Shown here: positions 3,511 through 46,960 of the stretch, piece after piece
Layout: each line of letters begins with the position of its first letter
How positions within the stretch are numbered: the stretch's first letter is position 1
Assembly: GCA_963844965.1 (NCBI GenBank)
Contig: CAWJQC010000007.1
Span: 160,001-224,000 of the forward strand
DNA length: 64,000 nucleotides
DNA from: an uncultured bacterium
GTDB taxonomy: Bacteria > Patescibacteriota > Minisyncoccia > UBA6257 > 2-01-FULL-56-20
Direction: 5' to 3'
Notes under the pieces: generated by a model
What the model was told of the DNA's origin: nothing
What the model saw: only the letters and a program-made list of their open reading frames with translations
The model's database searches: none
Translations under genes and position numbers: made by a program

Positions 3511-3615
3511 ATATTTGTTAATAATGTCCGATGTTTGCGACCTTTGCCTCTCAAGCCATAATCATTTATAGTTTATACGATTCGCCCCCGTAGTTCAACT
3601 TGTTTCGCATTGGTT

Positions 3616-4329: not shown

Positions 4330-4420
4330 TCTGTTGATTAACGAATTAACGGATTGCGTATTAACGGATTCGGTTTTTGATTCGTTAATTCGTTGATGCG
4401 TTAATAAATAATTTTTAACT
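4330..4420. repeat. palindromic TTAACG(G/A)ATT repeat array ending CGTTAATAAATAAT; same family at 20906-21012 and 46880-46960
   Basis: direct and inverted copies of ATTAACGGATT/AATCCGTTAAT read directly; shared terminal 14-mer. Confidence 0.6.
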
Positions 4421-6310: not shown

Positions 6311-7675
6311 ATGGACAAGATTGTGTCTTTGGCGAAGCGCAGAGGGTTTATTTTCCCCGGCTCGGAAATTTATGGAGGACTTGCCAACTCCTGGGATTAT
6401 GGGCCGCTTGGTGTGGAGCTCAAGAATAATATCAAAAATTTCTGGTGGGACAGATTTGTGCACAGGCGCGACGACATCGTGGGATTGGACGCGGCTTTAA
6501 TAATGAACCCCAAGGTGTGGGAAGCGAGCGGTCATCTCAAAGAATTTATTGACCCGTTGATTGAATGCAAAAAGTGCCACGAACGCTTCCGCGCCGACGA
6601 GCTTTTTAAAAAAGGCAGCTGGAAGAAAGAGCAGGAATTCTTGGGAACGCTTTCGGAAGCCGACAAAGAGAAAAGGGTCCGCGACCTGTTTGACAAATGC
6701 CCGAGTTGCGGTGCGGAAGACCAGTTTACGATACCGCGCAATTTCAACATGATGTTTAAGACGTTCATCGGCCCCGCCTACGGCGAGAAATCCGTCGCTT
6801 ACTTCAGGCCGGAAACGGCGCAGGCGATGTTCGTTGATTTCAAGAGTATTTTGAACACAACGCGCAAGACCGTTCCTTTCGGCATCGCCCAGGTTGGAAG
6901 GGCGTTTAGGAACGAAATAACGCCGGGCAATTTCGTTTTCCGGACAAGAGAATTTGAGCAAATGGAAATAGAATATTTCATCCGCGAGAAGGACTGGGAA
7001 AAATATTTTGACTATTGGCGCAAGGAGATGCTGGATTGGGTCGGGGATCTGGGTATCAAACCGGCGCGCATCCACGAGAGCGAAATCAAAGAGGAAGACC
7101 GCGCGCATTATTCGTCAAAAACCGTGGATTTTGAATACAATTTCCCGTTTGGCAGAAAAGAACTTTACGGCTTGGCGTATAGAACGGATTTTGACCTCAA
7201 GAATCATGAAAAGTTTTCCGGCGCTAACCTGAAGTACCGCGATCCGAAAACCGGAGAGGAGTTCTGGCCGCACGTCATTGAGCCGAGCATGGGTGTTGAG
7301 CGCCTTTTGCTTGCCGTAATGCTTGAAGCGTATGCCGAGGATGGCGACAGAGTTATTTTGAAACTTCCGGCAAAATTGGCGCCGCATAAGGCGGCGGTGT
7401 TTCCGCTCTTGGCCAACAAGCCAGAACTTATAAAGCTCGCAAAGAAAATATATGACGATTTGCGCCAACAGTTCGTGGTCGCTTGGGACGACCGCGGCAA
7501 CATCGGCAAGCGCTACTACGCGCAGGATGAAATCGGCACGCCCTGCTGCATCACCGTTGATTTTGATTCGCTGGAGGAGGACGACGTTACCGTGCGTGAT
7601 AGAGATACGGCGAAACAGGAGAGGATTAAAATAGCCGAACTCGAAGAATATTTGAAAGAGCACATAGGACCATGA
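6311..7675 (+). CDS. glyQS: glycine--tRNA ligase (class II, alpha2 type)
   Basis: strong similarity to GlyRS (FPGSEIYGGLANSWDYGPLGVELK...; class II motifs; anticodon-binding C-terminus). Confidence 0.9.
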   Translation: MDKIVSLAKRRGFIFPGSEIYGGLANSWDYGPLGVELKNNIKNFWWDRFVHRRDDIVGLDAALIMNPKVWEASGHLKEFIDPLIECKKCHERFRADELFKKGSWKKEQEFLGTLSEADKEKRVRDLFDKCPSCGAEDQFTIPRNFNMMFKTFIGPAYGEKSVAYFRPETAQAMFVDFKSILNTTRKTVPFGIAQVGRAFRNEITPGNFVFRTREFEQMEIEYFIREKDWEKYFDYWRKEMLDWVGDLGIKPARIHESEIKEEDRAHYSSKTVDFEYNFPFGRKELYGLAYRTDFDLKNHEKFSGANLKYRDPKTGEEFWPHVIEPSMGVERLLLAVMLEAYAEDGDRVILKLPAKLAPHKAAVFPLLANKPELIKLAKKIYDDLRQQFVVAWDDRGNIGKRYYAQDEIGTPCCITVDFDSLEEDDVTVRDRDTAKQERIKIAELEEYLKEHIGP

Positions 7676-8664
7676 CGGAAGTAATCGAACAGAAGGAGGA
7701 GCAGGTGGAAGCAGAAAAAGAACCGAAAATGAATTTTACGATATTTTATTCGGGTCATGTCAGAGCAGGAGATTTTGATAAATTGAAAGCGCTCTTCGAA
7801 GAAGCTGATATATACGTTCCGGAATCTATTGGATGGGATAAAAGGGAAAAGGAACTCTTTAGCAGGATGTCGGCTGGAGAGATAGACGGGGAAACATTTA
7901 AAGAAATGTTGTCGAAGTTCGAAAAAGACGACCCCGTCCTAGCCGAGGAATATAAGATAATTTACAATTCACATAAACCGATAGAATTCCTCGATGTTCC
8001 CGGAGATAATCAGACACATAAAGACACCGTGATGGCTCTTGAGGGCGAGTACGACGCTTATCTCGGTTTTTTGGACGGAGAATTTGACGAGGCGGTCTCG
8101 GAAATGAAGGGAGCTTCGGAAAAGTATGCAATTGCGCAGCAGGAACGGGAAAAGTACATAAAGTCGTTGGCGAACAGCAGATTGAAAGATTTAGTCGAGA
8201 AAAACCAGGCGCTTAAAGACAAGATTAAAAAAGGAGGCGGTATAAATGTTTTAATGAGCATAGGCGCGGATCACACGGCATTGGCCAGCGGTTTAAAAAA
8301 GGATTGGCCAGGGGGCGTAGAGACGAAATTCAGCGACTCGCCCTTTATATTCGATTATGACGCGGAATTGTACCGGCGTTATATGTTCAATAAGGAAGTT
8401 GGCGATGAATTGGTTGCCAAAGCCTTACTTTCCAGAGGATTGGTCTATAAATTTCGAAATTTTTGCAGAAATCATCAAGAGATAAGCGTTGTTTCAAGAA
8501 AAATTATTTCCGGCTTGACGTTTAATGATATAAGGAAAATTTCCGAAAGTTTGGGGGCTGGCGACGATTTGCAAAAAGCTTTTGATTCGTTGGGCAGGGA
8601 TATAAAAATCCCCGAATCGCGCGAAGAAGTAGATAAAATACTAGGAAAAAATAATAAATCATGA
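7672..8664 (+). CDS. hypothetical protein (330 aa), translationally coupled to glyQS (ATGA overlap)
   Basis: ORF with a start overlapping the glyQS stop; no family recognised. Confidence 0.5.
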   Translation: MTEVIEQKEEQVEAEKEPKMNFTIFYSGHVRAGDFDKLKALFEEADIYVPESIGWDKREKELFSRMSAGEIDGETFKEMLSKFEKDDPVLAEEYKIIYNSHKPIEFLDVPGDNQTHKDTVMALEGEYDAYLGFLDGEFDEAVSEMKGASEKYAIAQQEREKYIKSLANSRLKDLVEKNQALKDKIKKGGGINVLMSIGADHTALASGLKKDWPGGVETKFSDSPFIFDYDAELYRRYMFNKEVGDELVAKALLSRGLVYKFRNFCRNHQEISVVSRKIISGLTFNDIRKISESLGAGDDLQKAFDSLGRDIKIPESREEVDKILGKNNKS

Positions 8665-8803
8665 ATCCCGTTAAAAGCCCTGCCTGGCAGGCAGGCGCGG
8701 TCGCGTTGCAATAAATAAATTTATCAATACTATACTATGAAAAAGTTGAGTGAGGTAAAAAAATGTATGCAGGGCGGTACGACCGCGACCTGCTTCTAGC
8801 GGG

Positions 8804-10069
8804 ATGAAATTCATTATCCACGGCGGTAAAAAACTTTCGGGCGAAATAGAAGTGATGGGCGCCAAAAATTCGGTTTTGAAGGCGATGGCGGCTTCGCTTT
8901 TGTTCGCGAACCCCGTGACGATAGAAAATGTCCCGCAGATTGAGGACGTGGCGCGTATGTCCGAATTGCTTATGGACTTGGGAGCCGCGATAAAGAAACC
9001 GGACGAGCGGACGCTCGTGATTGATTGTGGCGTCGTCAGAGAAACGGCGATAAAAACCGAAATTGCCAACAAACTCCGCGCTTCAATCGTTCTCGCGGGA
9101 CCGCTTCTCGCGCGGAGCGGCAATGTTATTTTTCCGCATCCCGGCGGCTGCGTGATAGGGAAACGCCCAATTGATATATTTCTGGACGGCTGGCGGGCGA
9201 TGAGGGCGAAAGTGGAGGAAAAGAAAAATCGTTTTGGGGTCTCGGCGAAGAAACTTTTCGGCGCGGATTTCACTTTCCGCGTCGTCTCGGTGACGGGAAC
9301 GGAAACGTTAATGATGACGGCGGCACTGGCGCACGGGAAGACGGTTTTGCGTAACGCCGCCTGCGAGCCGGAAATTCCGGCTCTCGCGGAATTTTTGAAC
9401 AACTCCGGAGCGAAGATAAAGGGAGCCGGAACACCGATGATTGAAATTGAAGGGACCGGCGGCAAGTTGCTCAAAGCGAAGCGTCCGTTCCGCGTCATTC
9501 CGGATAGGATTGAAGCCGGAAGTTTCCTGATTTTGGGCGCGGCTCTCGGGAAAAAAGTCAGAGTAACCGATTGCGACCCCGAGCACCTTTCGGCGCTTAT
9601 GATTCAACTCAAGGACGCCGGCGTGAATTTGAAAGTTGAAAAAAATTGGATTGAGGTCGGGCGGCCGAAGCATCTCAAGGCCGCGAATGCCAAAACAAAA
9701 GAATATCCCGGCTTTCCCACGGACCTTCAGGCGCCGTACGCCGTGCTTATGACGCAAGCCGAAGGCGAAAGCATGATTTTTGAAACGATTTTTGAGGGGC
9801 GGCTGGCTTACGCTGACGACCTGAAGCGAATGGGAGCGAATATCGTCCTATGCGACCCGCATAGGATTTTGATTAAGGGTCCGACGCCGCTCCACGGCCG
9901 CGAGATGGAAATGCCGGATCTCCGCGCCGGTCTCGCGTTTGTCATCGCCGCTTTATTGGCGGAAGGCGAATCAACGATAGGTAACGTTTATCAGATAGAC
10001 CGCGGCTACGAAAAGATAGATGAGCGACTGAGGAAGCTGGGAGCGGAGATTGAAAGAACGGAACGGTGA
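8804..10069 (+). CDS. murA: UDP-N-acetylglucosamine 1-carboxyvinyltransferase
   Basis: full-length similarity to MurA (EPT family; KNSVLK, active-site C in GGCVIG). Confidence 0.9.
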   Translation: MKFIIHGGKKLSGEIEVMGAKNSVLKAMAASLLFANPVTIENVPQIEDVARMSELLMDLGAAIKKPDERTLVIDCGVVRETAIKTEIANKLRASIVLAGPLLARSGNVIFPHPGGCVIGKRPIDIFLDGWRAMRAKVEEKKNRFGVSAKKLFGADFTFRVVSVTGTETLMMTAALAHGKTVLRNAACEPEIPALAEFLNNSGAKIKGAGTPMIEIEGTGGKLLKAKRPFRVIPDRIEAGSFLILGAALGKKVRVTDCDPEHLSALMIQLKDAGVNLKVEKNWIEVGRPKHLKAANAKTKEYPGFPTDLQAPYAVLMTQAEGESMIFETIFEGRLAYADDLKRMGANIVLCDPHRILIKGPTPLHGREMEMPDLRAGLAFVIAALLAEGESTIGNVYQIDRGYEKIDERLRKLGAEIERTER

Positions 10070-18286: not shown

Positions 18287-18506
18287 GTTCTTCAGAGCCG
18301 ACCGAAGCTTGAAATAATGCCCGCCCTTATTGGCGCGGACAGCCCCGAAATGTAGAGTCGGGGTTTGTATATCGGAAGCCCTGCGTCACATCTCATTCCG
18401 ACGCAAGTCGGGATTCTCGAAAAATATATAATCGCATTATTGTTTTTCGGGACAATTTCTCGTGGCGAGCAGGGCATAGCCGAGACTGAGAGAAGGAAAT
18501 TTGTGT

Positions 18507-18586
18507 GGGCCCCGTAGCGCAGATTGGTCAGCGCGCCCGACTGTTCAAGCGGGAGGTCGCTGGTTCGAATCCAGCCGGGCCCACCA
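18507..18586 (+). tRNA. tRNA with an aberrant 8-nt anticodon loop (CUGUUCAA); best guess Asn (GUU); CCA encoded
   Basis: acceptor GGGCCCC/CGGGCCC with a 7-66 mismatch, D-stem GCGC/GCGC, T-arm GCTGG-TTCGAAT-CCAGC; the anticodon stem is only CCCG/CGGG, so identity is uncertain (possible indel). Confidence 0.45.
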
Positions 18587-18717: not shown

Positions 18718-18788
18718 GGCGCGGTCGTCAAGTGGCAAGACTGAGGGCTTGCAAGCCCTTATCGGGGGTTCGATTCCCTCCCGCGCCT
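18718..18788 (+). tRNA. tRNA-Cys (anticodon GCA)
   Basis: acceptor GGCGCGG/CCGCGCC, anticodon stem AGGGC/GCCCT with loop UUGCAAG, T-arm GGGGG-TTCGATT-CCCTC, discriminator U. Confidence 0.75.
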
Positions 18789-19455
18789 ACACCCTACACA
18801 TTTTTTGAAACTAAAATGTGTAGGGCTCTTTCTCTCAGTCTCGGCAACCCCGACGTAAAGTCGGGGTTAAAGTCAGCATTGGGATGGTTGGCATTTCCGC
18901 CGCAAGGCGGAAAATTAAGAGCGAATGGTGGATGCCCTTGACATCAAAAGGCGACGAAGGACGCGGCGTAGCGGCGATACGCCTCGGGGAGGTGCGTAGC
19001 AACCTGTGATCCGGGGATTTCCGAATGGGGAAACCCAATTGAGCAAACCTCAATTTTTTTGCCGCAAGGCAAAAAGCAAACCCGCTGAAGTAAAACATTC
19101 CAGTAAGCGGAGGAATAGAGAACTAATGTTATTCCCTTAGTATCGGCGAGAGAAAAGGGAAGAGCCTAAACCTAAGTTTTCGCAAGAAAAGTTTGGTGTT
19201 ATAAGGTAAAAACACTTTGGATATAACGTTGAGCGTTATCCGCCAACGGCGGAGCGGCGACCAGCGTTATATCTAAAAAGGAGTTACAAATTGATTTGTT
19301 AGCCGAAGCCCACTGGAAAGGGGCGCCAAAGGGGGTGATAGCCCCGTAGGCGAAAACGAATCAACTTCTCGTTTTTATCCTTGAGTACTCTGAGGTAAAT
19401 TAGCTTCGGAGGAATTCGCCTGTACTATCAGGCAAGGCTAAATACTTTTGATGAT

Positions 19456-19492
<37 letters not shown>

Positions 19493-19687
19493 CAGGCCGG
19501 TGAGGCCGTTGAAATAGAACCTGAAACCATTCGTTTACAAGGAATTGAACCACGAACGTTCTGCCGCAAGGCGGGACGAGTGGGACAATGTGCCTATTGA
19601 AGAATGAGCCAACGACTTATTTTGCATTGCTCGTGTAAGCATCTATAAGATGCGTACGCACAGCGAAAGCGAGTCTTAATAGGGCGA

Positions 19688-19972
19688 AAACCATCTCAAA
19701 TTTTTGGACTGAAAAATAAAAACCGGTCAGTTTTTAGCTGCCGGTCTGCGAGATACCAATTCTTGTTCTAATTTTCTGACCTGAGCGTCCAGTTTTTCTT
19801 GAAGGCCACGATGCCTCAAGTATCTCCTGCCGCTTACGTGCGATCGATGTTTTTTCCTGGTCCAGATGGAATGTTGGGCCACGCAAACTCCTTTTGTCGG
19901 GCGACTGTAGATCTGGAAGGATTTTAGGATGAGCCGAATAGAAAGTCAACAGTCCAAAAATTTGAGATGGTT
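19688..19972 (+). other. 23S IVS-a (~285 nt) at the helix-25 position, flanked by a perfect 21-nt inverted repeat CCATCTCAAATTTTTGGACTG / CAGTCCAAAAATTTGAGATGG
   Basis: conserved 23S sequence resumes on both sides; long perfect stem typical of RNase III-processed IVS. Confidence 0.65.
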
Positions 19973-20479
19973 AGGCAGTGCAACATAGACCCGAAGCCAG
20001 ATGAGCTTGCCTTGGCCAGGGTGAAATCCGCCGAAAGGCGGATGGAGGCCCGAACTGGTGGGTTGTTCAAAACCTTCGGATGAGCTGAGGTAAGGAGTGA
20101 AAAGCTAATCGAATCTGGTAATAGCTGGTTCTCTCCGAAATAGTTTTACGACTAGCGGCGCAGAAAATTTCGCGGGGGTAGAGCACTGGATGATTCGTAA
20201 AGGCCGAAAGGCCGACGAATCAATCAAACTCCGAATACCGCGATTGGAACCTGCGCTAGTCAGACTGCGGGGGCTAAGCTCCGTGGTCGCGAGGGAAAAA
20301 GCCCAGATCGTCAGCTAAGGTCCCTAAATCCATGCTAAGTGTTAAAGGTAGTCTTCTGCCATAAACAGATAGGAGGTTGGCTTAGAGGTAGCCATCCTTT
20401 AAAGAGTGTGTAACAACTCACTATTCGACGGCAGGGGGCGCGAAAATGTACCGGGGCTAAGCATGGTACCGAAGCTACG

Positions 20480-20585
20480 AATTACCTTGTGCTCCGCACA
20501 AGAATTTTCAGGTAATAATTTTCAATTTTCAAATGGTTTGGAAATTGTAAATTGCAAAATTGGAAATTCTCGCGCGCAGCGCGAG
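20480..20585 (+). other. 23S IVS-b (~105 nt) at the helix-45 position; interior is related to IVS-d
   Basis: an insertion lies between GTACCGAAGCTACG and GTAGTGGTAGGAGAGCATTC; interior aattttcaaatggtttggaaattg is similar to 21275-21330. Confidence 0.6.
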
Positions 20586-20885
20586 GTAGTGGTAGGAGAG
20601 CATTCGTATTGCACTGAAGCTCGACCCGCGAGGGCGAGTGGAGCGGTACGAAGAGACAATGTTGGTATGAGTAACCACAATCCCAATGAGAAATTGGAAC
20701 CCCGAAAATCCAAGGTTTCCGTGGCACTGGCAATCAACCACGGGTTAGGCGGCCCTAAGCCGATCCCGAAAGGGGCAGGCGATGGACAGACGGTTAATAT
20801 TCCGTCCCTTCCCTATGGTTATCTGCCGCATGACGGAGGAAATAAGCTTGCGTGCCTTATTGGTTTGGCATGGTTTGCCTCAAAG

Positions 20886-21033
20886 CGTGTCTCACTGCGT
20901 TCGACACTATAGTTAAACAATTTTTCAGTTAACGAGTTGCGAGTTAACGAGTTGAAAACAAAAAACCCGTTAACACGTTAACTCTTTAACTCGTTAATAA
21001 TTAATTATTGGGTGGCGAGCGGAGCGAGGCACG
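20886..21033 (+). other. 23S IVS-c (148 nt) with terminal stem CGTGTCTCACTGCGTTCG / CGAGCGGAGCGAGGCACG; interior made of TTAACG-family repeats
   Basis: 18-bp terminal pairing with 2 mismatches; interior matches intergenic repeats at 4330-4420 and 46880-46960. Confidence 0.6.
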
Positions 21034-21238
21034 TTGGAGGCCGACCGAAGGTTCGGTTTTTACCGGGCCGACGCAGGCGAAGAGCCTTCCAAGAAAAGCG
21101 CGGCGGTCACGCCGTAGAGAATCCGTACCGGAAACCGACACAGGTGGATTGGGCGAGAAGCCCTAGGGGAACGAGTGATTTGCCTCTAAGGAACTCGGCA
21201 AACAAGCGGCCGTAAGTTAGCAATATGGCCTGCCCGAC

Positions 21239-21352
21239 CGTGCCTCACTGCGTTCGGCGCGGAATTTAAAATTTTACAATTTTTAATTTTCAAACTGTTT
21301 GCAAAATTGAAAATTATATATTGAAAATTCCGCACGAGCATAGCGAGGTGCG
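21239..21352 (+). other. 23S IVS-d (114 nt) with terminal stem CGTGCCTCACTGCGTTCG / CGAGCATAGCGAGGTGCG
   Basis: left terminus identical to IVS-c and IVS-g at 17/18 positions. Confidence 0.6.
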
Positions 21353-21479
21353 GTTGGGCCGCAGCGAAAGTCCCTTTGGCGACTGTTTACCAAAAACACA
21401 GCTCCCTGCGAACTCGCAAGAGGATGTATAGGGGGTGACGCCTGACCGATGCGAGAAGGTCAAGGCCGACGGTGCACGT

Positions 21480-21565
21480 AGCACATAGCATGTAACACAA
21501 AACAAGAAAAAATAAATAAAACCTGCTCCATGTTACATGTTGCGTGCTGCGTGTGCTGATTGGCT
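21480..21565 (+). other. 23S IVS-e: expanded helix insertion with inverted repeat GCACATAGCATGTAACAC / CATGTTACATGTTGCGTGC
   Basis: extra ~70 nt relative to the conserved flanks AGAAGGTCAAGG ... GGTAACTATAACCG. Confidence 0.45.
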
Positions 21566-21887
21566 CAAGCCCTCGTCAATGTCAGCGGTAACTATAACCG
21601 TTCTAAGGTAGCGCAATTCCTTTTCGGGTAAGTTCCGAAGCGCACGAAAGGCGTAACGATCAAAGGACTGTCTCAGAGGCAAGCTCGGTGAAAATGCGAT
21701 TCCCGTGAAGACGCGGGATACCTGCAGCGGGACGAAAAGACCCCGGAAGCTTTACTGCAGCTTGGTATTGTTTCTAGGGCTTTGATGCGTAGCGTAGTGG
21801 GGAGCCTTTGAAGCTCCGCTCTCGGGCGGGGTGGAGGCGACAATGAAACACCCATCTTCAAAGTTTTAGCGACTAACCAGTTGGGGA

Positions 21888-21932
21888 CCCTACACTCTCT
21901 AGATAAATTTTGGAAATCCAGAGAGTGTAGGG
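21888..21932 (+). other. 23S IVS-f: hairpin insertion CCCTACACTCTCT-AGATAAATTTTGGAAATCC-AGAGAGTGTAGGG
   Basis: perfect 13-bp stem; its CCCTACAC...GTGTAGGG ends are shared with the hairpin at 18792-18825. Confidence 0.5.
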
Positions 21933-22297
21933 AAACCCAACCGGGACAGTGCTTGGTAGGCAGTTTAAATGGGGCGTTTTCCTCCAAAAAAGTAACGGAG
22001 GAGTTTATTAAGGTCGGCTTAGCCCGGATGGAAATCGGGCAGGACGTGCAAACGCAAAAGCCGGCTTAACTGCAAGGCCTACAAGCCGCGCAGATGCGAA
22101 AGCAGAAGTTAGTGACCCGACCACACATTATAGAATGGTGGGAGACACCGGACAAAAGCTACTCCGGGGATAACAGGCTGGTGAAGTCCGAGAGTCCCTA
22201 TCGACGACTTCGCTCGGCACCTCGATGTCGGCTCGGCACAGCGCGGGGGTGAAGAAGCTCCCAAGCGTTTGGCTGTTCGCCAATTAAAGTGCCACGT

Positions 22298-22338
<41 letters not shown>

Positions 22339-22456
22339 TGCTGCAGGCGTTTACACTTGAGGGGAGTTGGCCCTAGTACGAGAGGACTGGGCTGAACTGA
22401 CCTCTGGTCTACCGGCTTTGGTACCAACTGAAGCGCCGGGTAGCTATGTCGGGAAG

Positions 22457-22490
<34 letters not shown>

Positions 22491-22510
22491 ACCCCAAGAT
22501 TAGGTGTAGT

Positions 22511-22648
22511 CGTGCCTCACTATCGTTCGGCACGGTATCGATGCAAATATACTAATCGTACTAATGATGCGAATTTGATTCCATTGGTATCATTAGCATT
22601 CACTTGCATATTGGTATCGATACTCGTGATGAGCGGCAGCGAGGCACG
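22511..22648 (+). other. 23S IVS-g (138 nt) near the 3' end (helix-98 region) with terminal stem CGTGCCTCACTATCGTTCG / GAGCGGCAGCGAGGCACG
   Basis: same terminal stem family as IVS-c and IVS-d; interior is palindromic. Confidence 0.6.
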
Positions 22649-22962
22649 ACAAGGTTTCGTTGAAGACTACAACGCATATAGGCTCTAGGTGTAAGATCCG
22701 TAAGGATTTCAGCCAAGGAGTACTAATAACCTGTTTTGCCAACCATCCCAATGCTGACTTGTGTGCTGTTTTGGAGAACCGCGGTTCGATTCGCTCCAGC
22801 GGCGAATCGCCCGCTGCTTCTCGCTCCGACGGCTCGCTTCAGGCGAGACCAAGCCCGTCGGAGCTCCGAAAGCTTCTCCAAAACAGCACACTGCGTCCGT
22901 TCAGAAAGTTTAGGTGTTTTCGCGAAGCGAAAACAGCAATTTAAAGATTAAAACGACTCTTT

Positions 22963-26651: not shown

Positions 26652-26734
26652 GGCGCAGGTGGCAGAGCGGTCAATTGCACCAGACTGTAAATCTGGCGCC
26701 TTCGGGCTACGCAGGTTCGAATCCTGCCCTGCGC
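26652..26734 (+). tRNA. tRNA-Tyr (anticodon GUA), type II
   Basis: acceptor GCGCAGG/CCTGCGC, anticodon arm CCAGA-CUGUAAA-TCTGG (identical loop to E. coli tRNA-Tyr), long variable arm, T-arm GCAGG-TTCGAAT-CCTGC, discriminator A. Confidence 0.8.
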
Positions 26735-26740
26735 ACAAAT

Positions 26741-26767
26741 AAAAAAGCCCAAATGGGCTTTTTTATT
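26741..26767 (+). terminator. rho-independent terminator AAAAAGCCCAAATGGGCTTTTTT
   Basis: hairpin plus T-run immediately after tRNA-Tyr. Confidence 0.6.
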
Positions 26768-26829
26768 TGTGCGCCTTGCGACATTCAGTTCTGTCCCGCG
26801 CGTGAAGTGCGCCGTGCTATAATTAAGCT

Positions 26830-28085: not shown

Positions 28086-28865
28086 ATGCTGAAAAAAAGA
28101 TTATTTTGGCTGGTGCTTGTCGCCGTGGCGGTTCTCGGCGTGGGTATCTACTTCAATTCCGCCGGCGCGAATATTTTTGCTGGTGCGTCCGCGGGCGGCA
28201 AGTGGTTCCTGCTAATTCTCATCGTCGCGGCCTTAGCCGAGAGCTTAAATCCCTGCGCTTATTCGGTTTTGCTTCTTACCATCGCTTTTCTTTTCAGCTT
28301 GGGCAGGTCCAGAGCTCATATTCTACAGGCGGGAGGCGCGTTCATTTTGGGAATTTTTCTCGTCTACATCGGCATCGGCCTCGGCGCTTTGCAGGCGTTG
28401 CAGTTGTTCAACACGCCTCACTTTATGGCGAAAATCGGCGCGGTGATTCTCTTCGTTTTGGGGTCAATAAACCTCATAAACTCTTTCTTCCCGAAGTTCC
28501 CCATAAAATTGAGCATTCCGCAGTCGGCGCACAATAAAATGGCGCTGCTTATGGAAAAGGGTTTCATTCCCACGGCGTTTGCCCTGGGAGCGCTCGTCGG
28601 TCTCGGCGAATTTCCCTGCACGGGCGGGCCGTATCTCGTGGTGTTGGGGCTCTTGCACGATCAGGCGACGCGACTTGCCGGTTTGGCGTATTTGCTGCTC
28701 TTTAATTTGATTTTCATCTTGCCGCTCGTTATATTCTTATTAATAGCGAGCGAACAATCACTTCTTGCGAAAGTGCAGGAGTGGAAAAAATCAAGCACGG
28801 GAAACATGCGATTCTGGTCGGGAATCGTAATGGTCGTTCTGGGAGTGATAATTTTCTTCCTCTAA
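28086..28865 (+). CDS. ccdA: cytochrome c-type biogenesis / thiol:disulfide transmembrane protein, CcdA/DsbD family
   Basis: conserved Cys pair in TM regions (NPCAY, EFPCTGGPY), 6-TM topology. Confidence 0.75.
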   Translation: MLKKRLFWLVLVAVAVLGVGIYFNSAGANIFAGASAGGKWFLLILIVAALAESLNPCAYSVLLLTIAFLFSLGRSRAHILQAGGAFILGIFLVYIGIGLGALQALQLFNTPHFMAKIGAVILFVLGSINLINSFFPKFPIKLSIPQSAHNKMALLMEKGFIPTAFALGALVGLGEFPCTGGPYLVVLGLLHDQATRLAGLAYLLLFNLIFILPLVIFLLIASEQSLLAKVQEWKKSSTGNMRFWSGIVMVVLGVIIFFL

Positions 28866-28874
28866 CGGCTAAAA

Positions 28875-28945
28875 TTATATAATGCGAAAATTGCGAATAC
28901 TGTATGCGAATAATGCGAAAAATTTTCGCGGTATTCGCATAAATA
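28875..28945 (+). promoter_or_regulatory. array of four direct ATGCGAA(T) heptamers followed by inverted copies (TTTTCGCG, ATTCGCAT) overlapping a TATATAAT box; candidate operator
   Basis: repeats read directly. Confidence 0.4.
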
Positions 28946-28955
28946 ATTCGTAGAT

Positions 28956-29468
28956 TTGCATTATGATCCTATGGACGAAATAAAGGATTTTGAAGCGTTG
29001 GTTAAAAAAGTTGAAGCGATGAAAAAATCCGGAACGGTGGATTTGTCCACCGAAGAGGATTTGAGCATCGCGATAATGAACCTCGTCAGCTTGGAAGAAC
29101 ACTTCTTTTTCACCGGCGAGAAAACCGGCAAGGAGGAATATTTTGACCTGCTCGGCGAGGTGCGGGAAATGCGCAAGAAACTTCTCGCCAAAATGATAGA
29201 CAAACACGAAGGCGAGACGTGGTGCATTTCCAAGCATCTCTTGGCGACAACGATGCGCTTGATAGAGGTCGGGACGAAGTTGCGGGGCGACAAGAAGCTG
29301 AAAGAAGCGAAAGAAGTTTTTGAACAGGCGTTCAAGATCTATTCCATGTTTTGGGCGCTGCGCCTGAAGTTGATTGATGCTTCCGGATTTAAACAAGCCG
29401 CGGCTAGCGAAAAACCCTGGACCCTGAAAGATATCGTTAATAAATTAGTTGATTGCTGCGATGAATAG
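28956..29468 (+). CDS. hypothetical protein (170 aa); TTG or a later ATG start
   Basis: ORF only. Confidence 0.4.
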   Translation: MHYDPMDEIKDFEALVKKVEAMKKSGTVDLSTEEDLSIAIMNLVSLEEHFFFTGEKTGKEEYFDLLGEVREMRKKLLAKMIDKHEGETWCISKHLLATTMRLIEVGTKLRGDKKLKEAKEVFEQAFKIYSMFWALRLKLIDASGFKQAAASEKPWTLKDIVNKLVDCCDE

Positions 29469-31851: not shown

Positions 31852-31940
31852 TTACGAAAATACGAAAATATACGAAATTACGAAAACTAAATTTGAGGTG
31901 ACCACATTTCGTACGTTCGTAAAATTTCGTACTTTCGTAA
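31852..31940 (+). promoter_or_regulatory. array of four direct TACGAAA heptamers followed by three inverted TTTCGTA copies immediately upstream of ppsA; candidate operator/iteron-like sites
   Basis: repeats read directly. Confidence 0.45.
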
Positions 31941-40047: not shown

Positions 40048-41226
40048 ATGACATACAAAATGATGTTAACCGCTCGTCAGATTCTTGATTCGCGCGGGGA
40101 ACGGACGATAGAAGTTCAACTGGTAACTGGTAACCGGAAATTGGTAACTGGTTCTGTGCCGCAGGGGAAGAGCAAGGGTTCTTTTGAGGCGCATTACGTT
40201 CCGCCGGAGGTTGCCGTGCGGAATGTGGAGAAAATTATCGCGCCGAAGCTTAAAAATTTTGACGTTACGCGCCAGCGCGACATTGATTCATTTTTGATAA
40301 GGTTGGACGGCACGCCGATGAAATCCCGCCTCGGGGCGAACGCCATTTTGGGCGTTTCCATTGCTTGCGTGAAAGCCGGAGCGGCGGTTAAAAACGTGCC
40401 GCTTTGGAAATATATTGGGAAATTGCTTGGTGGCGTTCCGGCAAAAAAATCTGCAGGCCCGCGGCCATACGTCAACATGATCAACGGCGGCATGCACGCC
40501 GGAAATAATCTGCGTTTCCAGGAATATCTTGTGATTCCCAAGGCGAAAACTTTTTCGGAAGCCGTGTGGATCGCGACCGAATTGTACCAATCGCTAAAAA
40601 TTTATTTGGAAAAAACAAAAGGCAGAAGCGCGGCTAATTTGGGCGATGAAGGTGGCTTCGCGCCGGATTTCAAGGATGCGCTTGAACCCTTCGCCATATT
40701 GGAGAAAGTCGCGAAAAGCGCCGGCCTGCGCGGCAAAATTGATTTCGGACTGGATGCCGCGGCGACAGATGCCGGTTTGAACGTGAAAAAATTTTCGGAA
40801 ACCTACGCGGTGATGGCGAAGAAATTTAATTTGTTTTATTTGGAAGACCCGCTTCCCGAAAATGATTTTAAAGGATTCGCCGCTTTGCGGCAAGAGTTGC
40901 CGCGGCATCTTCTCGTCGCCGGCGATGACCTTACGGTGACAAATCTGGAACGGATGGAACTTGCGCACGATTCGGAGAGCGTGAACGCGATGATAGTGAA
41001 ACCGAATCAGATAGGCACGGTAACGGAGGCGATTGACGCCGTGCGCAAAGCGAAAGAATGGGGCTGGGCGGTTGTCGTTTCTCATAGGAGTGGTGAAACG
41101 AACGACGATTTCATCGCCGACTTCGCAGTAGGCGTTCGCGCCGACGGTTTCAAGCTCGGCGCTCCCGCCCGCGGCGAACGGATCGCGAAATATAACAGGT
41201 TGCTGGAGATCGAACGGGAATTCTGA
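40048..41226 (+). CDS. eno: enolase (phosphopyruvate hydratase); likely start at M5 (40060)
   Basis: ARQILDSRGERTIEVQL..., SHRSGETNDDFIADFAV and other enolase signature blocks. Confidence 0.9.
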   Translation: MTYKMMLTARQILDSRGERTIEVQLVTGNRKLVTGSVPQGKSKGSFEAHYVPPEVAVRNVEKIIAPKLKNFDVTRQRDIDSFLIRLDGTPMKSRLGANAILGVSIACVKAGAAVKNVPLWKYIGKLLGGVPAKKSAGPRPYVNMINGGMHAGNNLRFQEYLVIPKAKTFSEAVWIATELYQSLKIYLEKTKGRSAANLGDEGGFAPDFKDALEPFAILEKVAKSAGLRGKIDFGLDAAATDAGLNVKKFSETYAVMAKKFNLFYLEDPLPENDFKGFAALRQELPRHLLVAGDDLTVTNLERMELAHDSESVNAMIVKPNQIGTVTEAIDAVRKAKEWGWAVVVSHRSGETNDDFIADFAVGVRADGFKLGAPARGERIAKYNRLLEIEREF

Positions 41227-43096: not shown

Positions 43097-44416
43097 ATGG
43101 CAAAAAGAAAAATCTATCTTGACCACGCCGCGACAACGCTGATGGACCCGCGCGTTTTGCGCGCGATGATGCTGTATTTTTCGGAGGAGTTCGGCAATCC
43201 GTCAAATTTGTACGGGCTCGGGCTCAGGGCGAAAAAAGCTGTCGCTGAGGCAACGCGGAGAATAACGGACGTCCTGAACTGCGCGCCGGATGAGTTCGTT
43301 TTTACCGGTTCGGCGACGGAGGCGGATAATCTGGCGATTGCCGGCACGGCGCGGGCGAACCGTAAGGCCGGGAATAAAATTATTATTTCTAACATAGAAC
43401 ACAAGGCGGTTCTTTCAACCTGTGAGGCGCTCAAAAAAGAGGGCTTTGAAATCGTGGAATTGCCTGCCCACAAAGACGGGCTCGTCCGCCCCGCCGAGTT
43501 GCGTAAACTTCTGGACAACAAAACGACTCTGGTCTCGGTGATGTATGCTAATAATGAAATCGGTACGATACAGCCCATTTCTAAAATTTCGGAAATTATC
43601 AGAAATTTTAGAAATGGAATTTCTAATTCCCAATTTCTAATTTCTAAAAAAGATTCCAATTACCCAATTACCAATTACCAATTACCGCTATTCCACACGG
43701 ATGCGGTGCAAGCACTGCAGTTTTTGGATTGTGACGTAAACAAGCTTGGCGTGGACTTGCTCACGATTTCCTCGCACAAGATTTATGGGCCGAAGGGCGT
43801 CGGCGGCTTGTACGTGCGGCGCGGCGTTGCGATCCAACCCATAATTTACGGCGGCGGACAGCAGCGCGGTCTGCGTCCGGGAACGGAAAACGTGCCGGCC
43901 ATCGTCGGCTTCGGCGAAGCGGTGAGGTTAGCGACAAGTAAAAAGCGACACGAAACAAGTAGAGTTAAAAAACTGCGGGACAAGCTGGAGAAGGGGATCC
44001 TCAGGTCAATTCCGAAGGTTGTCCTGAACGGCCACCCGACAAAGCGCCTGCCGAATTTTTTGAACGTTTCCATTTTGGACATTGAGGGCGAGGCGCTGCT
44101 TCTTTGTCTAGATGAGAAAGGAATCTTTGTTAACACCGGCTCGGCGTGCAATTCGGAAAGCTTGGAGCCGTCTCATGTTTTGACCGCGCTTGGAAATCCA
44201 TACGAATATATTCACGGGAGCATCCGCTTCACGCTCGGCAGGGGGACGACCTCCCGCGATATTGACTACGTTCTCCGCGAACTGCCGCCCATTGTGGCAA
44301 AATTGCGAAAAATATCGCCCCTTGATCTCAAACTTGGCGCGAAGAAAAAAATATCCGAGCCCAAGGCCTTCGTCGGCGGCCAAACGCCGCATTTTCTGCG
44401 GAAAAAACATGGATGA
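43097..44416 (+). CDS. nifS: cysteine desulfurase (NifS/IscS family) with an in-frame low-complexity insertion encoded by tandem repeats
   Basis: PLP-binding [25 protein letters not shown]; ~20-aa insertion [27 protein letters not shown] relative to IscS. Confidence 0.85.
43590..43680 (+). repeat. in-frame mini/microsatellite inside nifS: AATTTCTAA units and CAATTAC x4
   Basis: tandem units read directly; reading frame maintained. Confidence 0.6.
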
Positions 44417-44909
44417 ATTTCAGATAAGCAATAGCAAAATAATTCTTGTTCTCGGCAATATCACTAAAATTAAGGCCGATGCTATAGTTAACGCAGCGAA
44501 CAATTCCCTGATGGGTGGTGGCGGAGTGGACGGGGCGATACACAGAGCGGCAGGACCGGAGTTGGACGAAGAATGCAGGAAGCTCGGAGGATGTGCGGCC
44601 GGTGAAGCGAAAATAACGAAAGGATACGCTTTGCCGGCAAGGCATATAATCCACACGGTGGGACCGGTTTGGCGGGGCGGCAAAGAGAAAGAGGAGGAAA
44701 TTCTTGCGAGCTGTTACCGCAATTGCCTCGCGCTCGCGGCGGAGAACGGCATAAAATCTATCGCGTTTTCCTCAATTTCCACCGGAGCTTACGGTTTTCC
44801 AATCGAAAAGGCCGCGCCGATCGCTGTTCGTGAGGCGTCTAATTTTCTAAAAAATAGCGAAGTGCCTTCATCAGTAATTTTTGTTTTATTTTCGGATAAA
44901 GATTCTTGA
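44409..44909 (+). CDS. macro-domain protein (O-acetyl-ADP-ribose deacetylase, YmdB-like); start overlaps the nifS stop
   Basis: [23 protein letters not shown] and [14 protein letters not shown] motifs. Confidence 0.8.
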
Positions 44910-44930: not shown

Positions 44931-45635
44931 GTGCTTTGTAGTAAAATAATAGTTATGCAAACCAAGACAAAAAAGCGTAAATCCAAGCCGGACGTCGTGA
45001 ACAAATTCACCGGCGGGAGCTGGGCGTATTCAAAAACGGTGCGCGACCATTTTTTCAGTCCCCGCAATCTGCTATTGGAGAAGCCGGGGCGGGGGAAATT
45101 TGACGCGGAAGGGATTGTCGGCTCGCCGGCCTGCGGCGACGTGATGCGCGTCTGGCTCAAAATTGACCGGAAGACCGACCGCATCAAGGAATTTAAGTGG
45201 CGGACATTTGGCTGCGCTTCGGCCATCGCCGCGACTTCCATGCTCTCGGTAATGGTGACTGAAAAAGGCAGAATGAAAGTTAACAAAGCGCTGAAAATCA
45301 AGCCGCATGACATAATGAAACGCCTCGGAGGACTGCCGGACAGAAAAATTCATTGCTCCGTCTTGGGCGATAAGGCGCTCCGTTCGGCGATAAATAATTG
45401 GTTCAAGAAAACCGGACAGGTTTCGCGAATCATAATTGAGGGCTCGCGCGTTTTGGACCCGAATACCAAGACGACGGAAGCGGACATTGAAGAAGCCGTT
45501 TTGGACGGTGCAACGACGCTTGAAGCGGTGCAGAAAATGACCAAGGTCGGCATCGGCTACCCGAAATGCGTTCCGGAAGTTGAAGAATTGATTAGATTTT
45601 ACAGGGAAAAATATTTCGGGCCGGATAAGAAATGA
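44931..45635 (+). CDS. nifU: NifU-like Fe-S cluster scaffold (IscU/NifU N-domain plus BFD-like [2Fe-2S] domain)
   Basis: GSPACGDVMRVWLKI...FGCASAIA scaffold cysteines; C-terminal BFD-like CxxC region. Confidence 0.75.
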   Translation: MLCSKIIVMQTKTKKRKSKPDVVNKFTGGSWAYSKTVRDHFFSPRNLLLEKPGRGKFDAEGIVGSPACGDVMRVWLKIDRKTDRIKEFKWRTFGCASAIAATSMLSVMVTEKGRMKVNKALKIKPHDIMKRLGGLPDRKIHCSVLGDKALRSAINNWFKKTGQVSRIIIEGSRVLDPNTKTTEADIEEAVLDGATTLEAVQKMTKVGIGYPKCVPEVEELIRFYREKYFGPDKK

Positions 45636-46577: not shown

Positions 46578-46616
46578 AAAGAAAATAGAAATTAGAAAAT
46601 AGAAAATAGAATAAAA

Positions 46617-46877
46617 ATGGCCAATACCAAAGAATACCCTCGGAGCAGGCCCGGTTCCAAAATAGGGAAGATAGTCATTGACCGCGACCTTTGTATCGGC
46701 GCGGCTTCCTGTATCGCCGTTTCCGCCGAGACCTATGAATTGGACGGCGAGAATAAAGCCGTGGTGAAGGGCGCTGACGCCGTTGATGACGATGTGGTCA
46801 TCATGTCAGCCGAATCCTGTCCTGTGAAAGCGATTTTGCTTTACGACAAGGACGGAAAGCAGATCTTTCCCAAATAA
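46617..46877 (+). CDS. ferredoxin (single [4Fe-4S]/[3Fe-4S] cluster type)
   Basis: IDRDLCIGAASC...ESCP cysteine pattern. Confidence 0.65.
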   Translation: MANTKEYPRSRPGSKIGKIVIDRDLCIGAASCIAVSAETYELDGENKAVVKGADAVDDDVVIMSAESCPVKAILLYDKDGKQIFPK

Positions 46878-46879
46878 AC

Positions 46880-46960
46880 GAATTATCCAATTAACGGATT
46901 AACGCATTAACGAATTTAATCCGTTAATTCGCAATTCGTTAATAAATAATCGAGCAATCT
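46880..46960. repeat. TTAACG-family palindromic repeat (CCAATTAACGGATTAACGCATTAACGAATTTAATCCGTTAATTCGCAATTCGTTAATAAATAAT)
   Basis: same family and terminal 14-mer as 4330-4420. Confidence 0.6.

Follow-up and report, generated by a model that had tools for sequence, protein, structure and literature searches.

The window considered here is a stretch of 64,000 nucleotides (nt) of DNA from an uncultured bacterium of the Patescibacteriota, and it contains a nifS gene for a cysteine desulfurase in which one loop of the deduced protein is extended by an insert of tandemly repeated 7-8-nt units. This insert is probably tolerated repeat DNA in a permissive loop, which would have been made in place by slippage of native seed sequences together with template switching and filtered for an open frame. 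An earlier reading of the same DNA, termed the original prediction in the following, had described an in-frame, low-complexity tandem-repeat expansion located between the conserved block NNEIGTIQ and the next conserved block and absent from IscS and NifS references, and had regarded it as a potential phase-variation or instability hotspot. The present analysis corroborated the repeats, their frame and their position and found the site to be unstable over evolutionary time, whereas the evidence argued against phase variation. Throughout the text, WIN denotes the window's own sequence and L-numbers (L001, L005 and so on) denote the homologous loci that were compared with it.

The gene carrying the insert is the following:

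43100-44416, + strand: coding sequence of a nifS/iscS-type (group I) cysteine desulfurase, 438 amino acids (aa), intact (family profiles, PDB structures and AlphaFold2 model)

The Pfam profile Aminotran_5 (PF00266) matches the deduced NifS protein at 2e-73, with an alignment that is broken in two by the insert. The NCBIfam profile TIGR03402 (FeS_nifS) yields 492 bits and falls short of the curated equivalog cut-off (530.75), as the match is divided by the insert at residues 169/197 into the parts 6-169 and 197-408, and on account of this score the enzyme was filed as NifS/IscS-type and not as a strict NifS equivalog. Cysteine desulfurases of the PDB match at 1e-109 to 2e-109 with a gap at the insert, and the breaks in all family-profile and PDB matches fall at residues 169/170-196/197, so that the insert is indeed missing from the reference enzymes at the predicted place. 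The AlphaFold2 model has a predicted template modelling (TM) score of 0.84 and reaches TM values of 0.90-0.94 to IscS/NFS1/NifS structures. Invariant columns in an alignment of 51 sequences include H101, H199, D201, Q204, the pyridoxal phosphate (PLP) lysine K227 and the catalytic C350, and the motifs SSHK227, H199-T-D201-A-V-Q204 and GSAC350 are all present. The best homologs were found in bins of Minisyncoccia, Paceibacterota and other Patescibacteria. Judged by these sequence comparisons, and apart from the insert, the protein appears to be an ordinary, intact cysteine desulfurase of a Patescibacteria (Paceibacteria/Minisyncoccia-like) genome.

Three arrays within positions 43584-43686 of nifS were detected by Tandem Repeats Finder (TRF). 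Together with an inverted repeat, termed H1, they make up the following set of features:

43575-43617, + strand: hairpin H1, a perfect 16-bp inverted repeat with the 11-nt loop GGAAATTATCA (repeat finder, folding)
43584-43615, + strand: array (AAATTTCAG)x3.4 (TRF)
43618-43647, + strand: array 1, (AATTTCT)x4.3, encoding G173-S182 (TRF, 82% matches)
43646-43657, + strand: K-K-D-S stretch AAAAAAGATTCC, a probable remnant of the native loop (from loop alignments)
43656-43686, + strand: array 2, (CCAATTA)x4.3, encoding N187-Q194 (NYPITNYQ) (TRF, 95% matches)

Both arrays are seeded on native codons (N-F / G-I-S and Y-P / L-P). Array 1 starts on the native G-I-S codons GGA ATT TCT, and array 2, read as AATTACC(C) with unit lengths of 8/7/7/7, leads into the conserved L-P codons TTA CCG. 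The units of array 1 and the AGAAATT units of the right H1 arm are reverse complements, and ATTTCTAA units further downstream duplicate the left arm of the hairpin; in addition, the 9-mer AATTTCTAA is present at 43618 and 43632, and CCAATTACC occurs three times. The GC content of the repeat region is ~0.25; over positions 43550-43700 it falls to 0.23-0.33, compared with 0.45-0.73 in the rest of nifS and ~0.5 gene-wide.

With respect to size, the insert adds 19 aa (57 nt) to the clade norm of 28-30 aa and 24 aa to the 23-aa segment of canonical IscS/NifS proteins. Compared with empty sites, the order is native helix end NFRN, array 1, K-K-D-S, array 2 and LFHTD. Relatives of the same subclade with short, empty loops are L172 (EKFRKGIGSSTVPFFHTD) and L173 (KKFRGTTALPIFHTD), which have native GGG ATC GGT TCT at the start of the WIN arrays and native CCG TTC TTC CAC at their end; the full reading of L172 at the position of array 1 is AAA GGG ATC GGT TCT. 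The K-K-D-S residues between the WIN arrays agree with the clade consensus FRKKN-S. Regarding the extent of the insert, the original prediction was correct in recognising a low-complexity repeat insert, but the residues RNFRNG that it had counted in are native and align with the clade-conserved NFRxx helix end. The used frame is the only one that stays open throughout the insert, the other frames being closed; a translational bypass or an intervening sequence was considered and is not needed with this sole open frame.

Structural modelling had been proposed as a check of whether the insert lies in a surface loop. The AlphaFold2 model places it between the helix formed by residues 160-178 and the strand formed by residues 197-201, and residues 179-192 have a predicted local distance difference test (pLDDT) value below 50. 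The strand 197-201 ends at the PLP-binding Asp. Since the insert joins the opposite end of this strand, a position on the surface and away from the cofactor is predicted from model confidence, secondary structure and the general architecture of fold-type I enzymes.

The strongest feature of the region, which the original prediction had omitted, is the inverted repeat H1. Both arms (43575-43590 and 43602-43617) are native coding sequence, and the left arm CCATTTCTAAAATTTC, encoding P-I-S-K-I-S, and the right arm GAAATTTTAGAAATGG, encoding R-N-F-R-N-G, are mutual antisense translations. The inverted-repeat score of H1 is 16, with a z-score of 10.2 versus shuffles, and the insert region folded against shuffles with z-scores of -4.45 (RNA) and -5.93 (DNA). 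The AGAAAT and ATTTCT units of the insert can also pair with one another in several other ways. Moreover, the E-I codons (GAAATT) are the reverse complement of the N-F codons (AATTTC), and conserved residues of the protein hence provide a weak built-in quasi-palindrome.

The conservation of H1 was assessed by counting Watson-Crick pairs in the WIN register at 17 positions in 83 Patescibacteria sequences. WIN has 16 of the 17 pairs, followed by L005 with 15, L168 with 12, and L169 and L167 with 10 each, and the remaining sequences have at most 9 with a median of ~6. The closest WIN relatives belong to this last group (L002 with 3 pairs, L166 with 7, L172 with 9 and L173 with 7). A clade-conserved RNA structure at H1 was ruled out, as high in-register pairing is found only in WIN, L005 and L168. 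The stem of L005 occupies the same register with another sequence, CCGCTTTTTGAAATT / AATTTCAAAAAGCGG, encoding PLFEI and NFKKR, and the amino acids differ on both arms (PISKIS/RNFRNG in WIN versus PLFEIR/ENFKKR in L005). On this comparison, H1 seems to be a lineage-specific perfecting of the quasi-palindrome that altered amino acids on both arms, and it would match the footprint of a template-switch mutation. In template-switch (quasipalindrome) mutation, multi-base changes perfect two arms in one step, including cases in rRNA and coding sequence (PMC8794818; PMC8604942). Like such products, the stems of WIN and L005 are both perfect and share a register while differing in sequence; unlike in the studies of this process, the mechanism at H1 is read from end products alone.

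The loop was compared in 51 close proteins, 80 Patescibacteria loci and 68 distant homologs; a metagenome scan delivered mostly relatives of 45-50% identity that were usable as outgroup only. The segment between the conserved blocks ranges from 23 to 89 aa among all homologs and from 28 to 89 aa among the 51 close proteins. It measures 23 aa in 50 of the 68 distant homologs and 28-34 aa in most Patescibacteria, and it extends to at least 35 aa in 27 of the 80 Patescibacteria loci and to 89 aa in one further homologous protein. Even between relatives with 76-84% aa identity the loop sequences are unrelated, and the inserts of different relatives differ in sequence, length and GC content. The instability suspected for this site is thus apparent on the evolutionary scale, and in the Patescibacteria NifS proteins compared here the loop appears structurally permissive and hypervariable. 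Long loops also differ from short ones in their internal symmetry, since 14 of the 27 loops of at least 35 aa have an inverted-repeat score of at least 10, compared with none of the 46 loops of 28-34 aa, and the shuffle z-scores of the loop inverted repeats reach 17. The arms of many long loops are inverted tandem 7-8-mers, such as (GGGTACA)n/(TGCACCC)n in L026 and comparable arms in L006, L169, L032 and L002, and the loop of L037 contains a perfect 23-bp stem.

A comparison of alleles in related bins, another check proposed earlier, bore out the hypervariability of the loop but also revealed one relative, L005, with the same two arrays at ~4 units each. Its loop has the layout of WIN, with four AATTTCC units, an A-run and (AATTACCN)x4 leading into native TAC CCG. 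A 30-nt GC-rich hairpin, CCGCCTGCGCCGAGGCTTCGGTGGGCAGGC, is nested in frame mid-way in the four AATTTCC units of L005 (~3567-3596), and this in-frame position within the array indicates what is probably a second layer of insertion inside the repeat.

Arrays of this type are not restricted to the loop. Only TRF arrays with a score of at least 40 were counted, as the density at a score of at least 30 (~65 per 100 kb) is alike in Patescibacteria and distant loci and represents noise. The window contains 9 arrays with a period of 7-8 above this threshold, versus 0.03 on average, and never more than 1, in 100 composition-preserving block shuffles, and these periods account for 9 of the 13 window arrays with such a score. 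The arrays, hairpins and insertions outside the loop are located as follows:

43930-43964, + strand: second nifS site, degenerate heptamers AGCGACA AGTAAAA AGCGACA CGAAACA AGTAGAG in the helix after GFGEA, length unchanged
40118-40152, + strand: in-frame enolase array (AACTGGT)x5, N-terminal hairpin loop (TRF)
4336-4405, no strand assigned: intergenic hairpin of inverted (GATTAACG)n arrays that fills the spacer of co-directional genes (fold z -3.1)
28887-28957, no strand assigned: hairpin (ATGCGAA)n/(TTCGCAT)n after the open reading frame (ORF) 28086-28865 (fold z -6.3)
31853-31940, no strand assigned: intergenic hairpin (TACGAAAA)n / (TTTCGTAC)n (TRF, fold z -5.7)
46580-46611, no strand assigned: spacer array (AGAAAAT)x4.6, upstream of the nifS-nifU cluster's ferredoxin gene (TRF)
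46873-46943, no strand assigned: hairpin of (AATTAACG)n and inverted units, in the spacer that separates the ferredoxin gene from the ferredoxin-reductase gene (TRF, fold z -4.8)
20517-20568, + strand: 23S helix-tip insertion AATTTTC/GAAATT at a model hairpin-loop position
20927-20997 (within ~20900-21030), + strand: 23S helix-tip insertion AGTTAACG at a model hairpin-loop position
21265-21329 (within ~21262-21365), + strand: 23S helix-tip insertion AATTTTN at a model hairpin-loop position
21475-21553 (within ~21474-21555), + strand: 23S helix-tip insertion at a model hairpin-loop position

At the second nifS site, heptamer arrays recur in several relatives without a change of length, namely a perfect (AGCGACA)x4.3 in L169 (2328-2357), (AGTGACA)x4.3 in L168 (2346-2375) and (GTCAAGA)x4 in L005 (3912-3939) and L173. 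The enolase site likewise carries (GCGATTG)x3.9 in L005 (1772-1798) at near-equal protein length, with no array in L002 and L172, and this points to a homogenisation of units that would leave the length of enolase unchanged. The units differ between genomes at orthologous sites and are homogeneous within each genome, a distribution that is indicative of an ongoing homogenisation of array units. According to a greedy ORF map, which is not a curated annotation, + strand ORFs are found on either side of the arrays at 4336, 31853, 46580 and 46873. Of all sequences in the window, the one closest to the array 1 unit of nifS is the (AGAAAAT)n array at 46580, although the similarity is loose. The 23S rRNA gene (18905-22743) measures 3839 nt versus 2925 nt of the model, and in the stretch examined at least four insertions are present at model hairpin-loop positions, all of them with 7-8-nt-repeat hairpins. 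Together with the second nifS site, the in-frame array in enolase points to a genome-wide mutational habit and not to a locus-specific switch.

The sequence of events that would account for these observations starts at the two edges of the loop, at each of which replication slippage would have amplified a short run of native codons in place to ~4 tandem copies. The seed AATTTC(T) would come from N-F / G-I-S codons where helix 160-178 ends, and the seed AATTACC from (N)-Y-P / L-P codons ahead of strand 197-201. Template switching would have turned the inherent weak quasi-palindrome into the perfect 16-bp inverted repeat. Only versions with a frame-preserving total length and without stops would have survived, and the product would be a disordered extension of 19 aa that is presumably neutral and leaves a working enzyme. 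The same process may operate lineage-wide in producing 7-8-nt arrays and array-built hairpins in spacers, 23S helix tips and permissive protein loops, supplemented by dispersed hairpin elements in some relatives. The similarity of the WIN and L005 inserts might be explained by arrays that are continually re-homogenised against an anchor unit fixed by protein-level selection (N-F, Y-P). An origin by in-situ slippage plus template switching is favoured because the arrays start on native codons and because no second copy of the insert is present in the 64 kb.

Several observations weigh against this explanation. The NifS proteins of WIN and L005 share 79% aa identity and only 54% identity at third codon positions outside the loop, and yet their inserts are ~90% identical at the DNA level, while L002 (84% aa identity) and L166 (82%), which are closer to WIN than L005, hold inserts unrelated to that of WIN. 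Shared ancestry would account for this pattern no better than a horizontal spread of an element or a selection at the nucleotide level. Insertion does occur at the site, as the loop inserts of L026 and L041 are demonstrably dispersed elements; the search for further copies of the WIN insert covered ~64 kb of the genome. Stepwise slippage is moreover an incomplete account, since a +7 slip in an essential gene would be lethal unless compensated at once.

[quoted passage not shown] Such events are traceable in relatives. The loop insert of L026 aligns with three intergenic copies of one ~80-nt hairpin element within 2 kb, which occupy the spacers that follow nifS and nifU and the one that precedes the ferredoxin gene, and the copies share 52 invariant columns including loop bases. 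The loop of L041 contains a 58-nt GC-rich hairpin element, which recurs in frame at the second nifS site (2308-2357; 98% identity) and, on the opposite strand, further downstream (96.6%); the spacer that follows nifS holds partial copies. For L027, a second copy was detected at 84%. On the basis of these alignments, dispersed elements evidently do enter the nifS loop in L026 and L041. The insert types are also patchily distributed on a rough neighbour-joining tree of NifS, where some of them recur in separate lineages, and inserts of the same type are 85-90% identical in DNA at 69-79% protein identity (WIN/L005, L169/L170 and L006/L171). Furthermore, the relative L172 encodes a Y1 transposase, similar to those of IS200 and to REP-associated tyrosine transposases (RAYT), with REP-like hairpins beside its enolase-nifS genes.

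This L172 transposase gene (1055-1603) has the HUH motif 'HFH' and the sequence 'YIHLNP', and it is flanked on both sides (~900-930 and 1605-1640) by the GC-rich hairpin GTAGCAAGGG...CCCTTGCTAC, which is a typical REP-associated arrangement.

WIN itself shares with elements of the RPE/REP/MITE type a palindromic, hairpin-forming sequence, represented by the perfect 16-bp stem. A multi-copy state was found in L026 (4 copies), L041 (at least 3) and L027 (2) but not in the 64-kb window, where AATTACC arrays occur nowhere else, the whole insert has no further copy, and the 12-mers of the insert have 3 matches elsewhere versus 1.5 for control segments, which is no enrichment. A tblastn search of the window revealed no homolog of the Y1 transposase. 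The arrays merge outward into native codons with the native K-K-D-S residues between them, and discrete boundaries or a target-site duplication are missing, an arrangement that is unlike the remains of a single inserted element.

A broader proposal would link the two nifS sites and the enolase loops as recurrent, specific targets of an undescribed hairpin-repeat system of Patescibacteria, either by Y1 (RAYT/IS200-like) hairpin-directed insertion at coding quasi-palindromes or by hairpins that were co-opted as operon-internal RNA or DNA signals. If true, it would account for the conservation of insert DNA above the synonymous level and for the recurrence of insert types in distant NifS lineages; we nevertheless assign it a low probability.

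Of low probability, too, is the assumption that the hairpin and the arrays form a functional nucleic-acid element, for instance in the processing or stability of the mRNA, as a pause site in nifS-nifU-fdx or as protein-binding DNA, with the peptide as a by-product. Two lineages have a perfect H1 stem, in which the compensating changes go as far as altering amino acids, the insert DNA is more conserved than synonymous sites in the three pairs of loci named above, and similar hairpins are located in spacers of the same gene cluster in the window, L026 and L169. However, H1 is not conserved in the clade, with a median of ~6 of 17 pairs and 3-9 pairs in the closest relatives, the inserts of different relatives are unrelated in sequence, length and GC content, and perfect Watson-Crick stems without G-U pairs suit an origin by copying at the DNA level. 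No Rfam family was assigned to the insert at threshold (best E-value 0.19), and internal terminator or promoter signals in the insert were not above chance.

That the arrays constitute a phase-variable (contingency) tract, in which one 7-nt slip toggles nifS, as had been suspected in the original prediction, is very improbable. A unit length of 7-8 nt is not divisible by three, and changes by one or two units (+/-7 or +/-14 nt) would lead to stops at aa 185-218, before K227 and C350, while a change of +/-21 nt would stay in frame; the variability of the loop between species is also extreme. Contingency tracts of multi-nucleotide repeats are long, near-perfect and usually well above 8 units, and adaptive on/off switching concerns surface, restriction-modification or virulence genes. 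In WIN, each array has 4.3 copies with 82% and 95% matches, ~4 units per array are likewise present in L005 at 79% aa identity, and the gene belongs to the nifS-nifU-ferredoxin cluster and specifies a housekeeping Fe-S enzyme. Equivalent arrays are moreover present in enolase and rRNA. The nifS gene in the independent Logan assembly L001 is identical, and the 90% protein cluster of NifS has one member; the two identical assemblies are weak evidence against a polymorphism in unit number. Among the 151 of 170 homologous loci that were readable no frame-broken nifS loop was seen, 8 loci without the motif being unread. Frameshifted or stop-containing loops were also considered for loci that failed the pattern search, and those inspected were pattern mismatches and not broken genes. 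An established case for comparison is the heptanucleotide tract of 13-24 units in the promoter of the adhesin gene hmw1A of Haemophilus influenzae (PMC8262952). In nifS as at such loci, adding or losing one 7-nt unit would alter expression, but the known tracts comprise 13-24 units or more, are located in the promoters or at the 5' ends of surface or restriction genes and vary between isolates, whereas the units of nifS are imperfect, number ~4 and are found in the middle of the gene.

An assembly or binning artefact, in the form of a collapsed or chimeric repeat in this AT-rich low-complexity region of a metagenome-derived genome, is hardly conceivable, as the frame and all catalytic residues are intact, the separately assembled Logan contig L001 from run ERR10755942 contains the identical gene, L005 shows the same architecture in a different sample, and dozens of independent assemblies have inserts at the same loop.

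A description of this repeat pattern in Patescibacteria was not found in the searchable literature, although several known systems share parts of it. RPEs are translated, in-frame hairpin repeats in unrelated housekeeping genes at positions compatible with the fold of the protein (PMC10969869). They share with the nifS insert the state of translated hairpin DNA in frame, and the inserts of L026 and L041 resemble them as copies of dispersed elements, but RPEs measure ~150 bp and form multi-copy families with a conserved peptide, whereas the nifS insert comprises 57 nt of 7-8-nt units, is present in a single copy in 64 kb and has no conserved peptide. Heptameric long simple sequence repeats (SSRs) of prokaryotes include GGGNATC in Xanthomonas and Nostoc, TAACTGA in Beggiatoaceae and the cyanobacterial STRR type; they typically consist of ~4 units, occur throughout the genome, are located mostly between co-directional ORFs and occasionally within ORFs, form some inverted pairs and were proposed to arise by slippage (PMC4692102, PMC4679880). 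The arrays of the window follow the same pattern, being enriched over chance and favouring co-directional spacers. They differ in lacking one favoured unit, in the many arrays paired as hairpins, in AT-rich units that cannot form G-quadruplexes and in their additional presence at rRNA helix tips and in the same in-frame loops of nifS and enolase in several genomes. Borg tandem repeats are fast-evolving and lineage-specific, and those in ORFs encode low-complexity, disordered segments (PMC9879509). Their intragenic units are always divisible by three and yield perfect amino acid repeats, whereas in nifS, with its units of 7-8 nt, the frame is preserved through the total length alone. The rRNA expansion segments and insertions of candidate-phyla bacteria are comparable to the 23S rRNA of the window, and not to nifS, in that hairpins are added at helix tips with the core undisturbed; they represent the RNA counterpart of an insertion into a protein surface loop.

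For nifS itself the insert would be of little consequence, as the enzyme looks intact and the loop tolerates nearly anything. The wider value lies in this lineage of very small genomes, in which 7-8-nt arrays and hairpins recur at the same permissive sites of essential proteins, at rRNA tips and in spacers. These inserts mark out naturally where NifS and enolase tolerate insertions, and they provide an example of how DNA-level processes, such as slippage, template switching and dispersed hairpins, may rewrite amino acids in conserved proteins. They also give a practical warning, since they split profile matches, leaving NifS below the curated cut-off, and mimic contingency loci.

The genes downstream of nifS encode a macro-domain protein, NifU, a HAD hydrolase, ferredoxin and ferredoxin reductase. 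The gene at 44931-45635 combines the NifU_N and Fer2_BFD domains, which places the scaffold protein expected with a cysteine desulfurase in the same cluster, and relatives share this cluster. The macro-domain gene (44403-44909) begins within the final nifS codons with a start/stop overlap and separates nifS from nifU, unlike in most relatives, where nifU directly follows nifS. In L171, the NifU gene (7148-8986) specifies 612 aa with a weak match to LAGLIDADG_3, which suggests an intein or a homing-endonuclease insertion.

Additional observations were made near the tRNA and rRNA genes of the window. Directly upstream of the 23S rRNA gene, ARAGORN predicted two tRNA genes with irregular anticodon loops (18508-18586 and 18718-18788). 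One of them is Asn-like, with an apparent 8-nt loop CTGTTCAA and the reported anticodon 'gttc', and the other is Cys-like, with an apparent 6-nt loop TTGCAA and the reported anticodon 'gc'. Both were rated as tRNA by Rfam (51 and 48 bits), and they could be real unusual tRNAs or the result of one-base errors. A 17-nt inverted repeat of the type CCGAGACTGAGAGAAGG / CCTTCTCTCAGTCTCGG (18480-18496 and 18827-18843) encloses the three-tRNA cluster before the 23S rRNA gene and may represent a processing stem of the rRNA/tRNA transcript, and a hairpin CCCTACACAT...ATGTGTAGGG follows the last tRNA of this cluster (18790-18826). An imperfect 44-nt inverted repeat was detected at 2737-2828; since one arm and the 3' part (T-arm, GGGGGAATCGAAC) of a minus-strand tRNA-Ala(GGC) overlap, the opposite arm would be an inverted partial copy of this tRNA. 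Finally, a perfect 21-bp palindrome, GCGCACAAATAAAAAAGCCCA / TGGGCTTTTTTATTTGTGCGC, extends downstream from the last bases of tRNA-Tyr (26653-26736) at positions 26731-26774 and looks like a bidirectional terminator.

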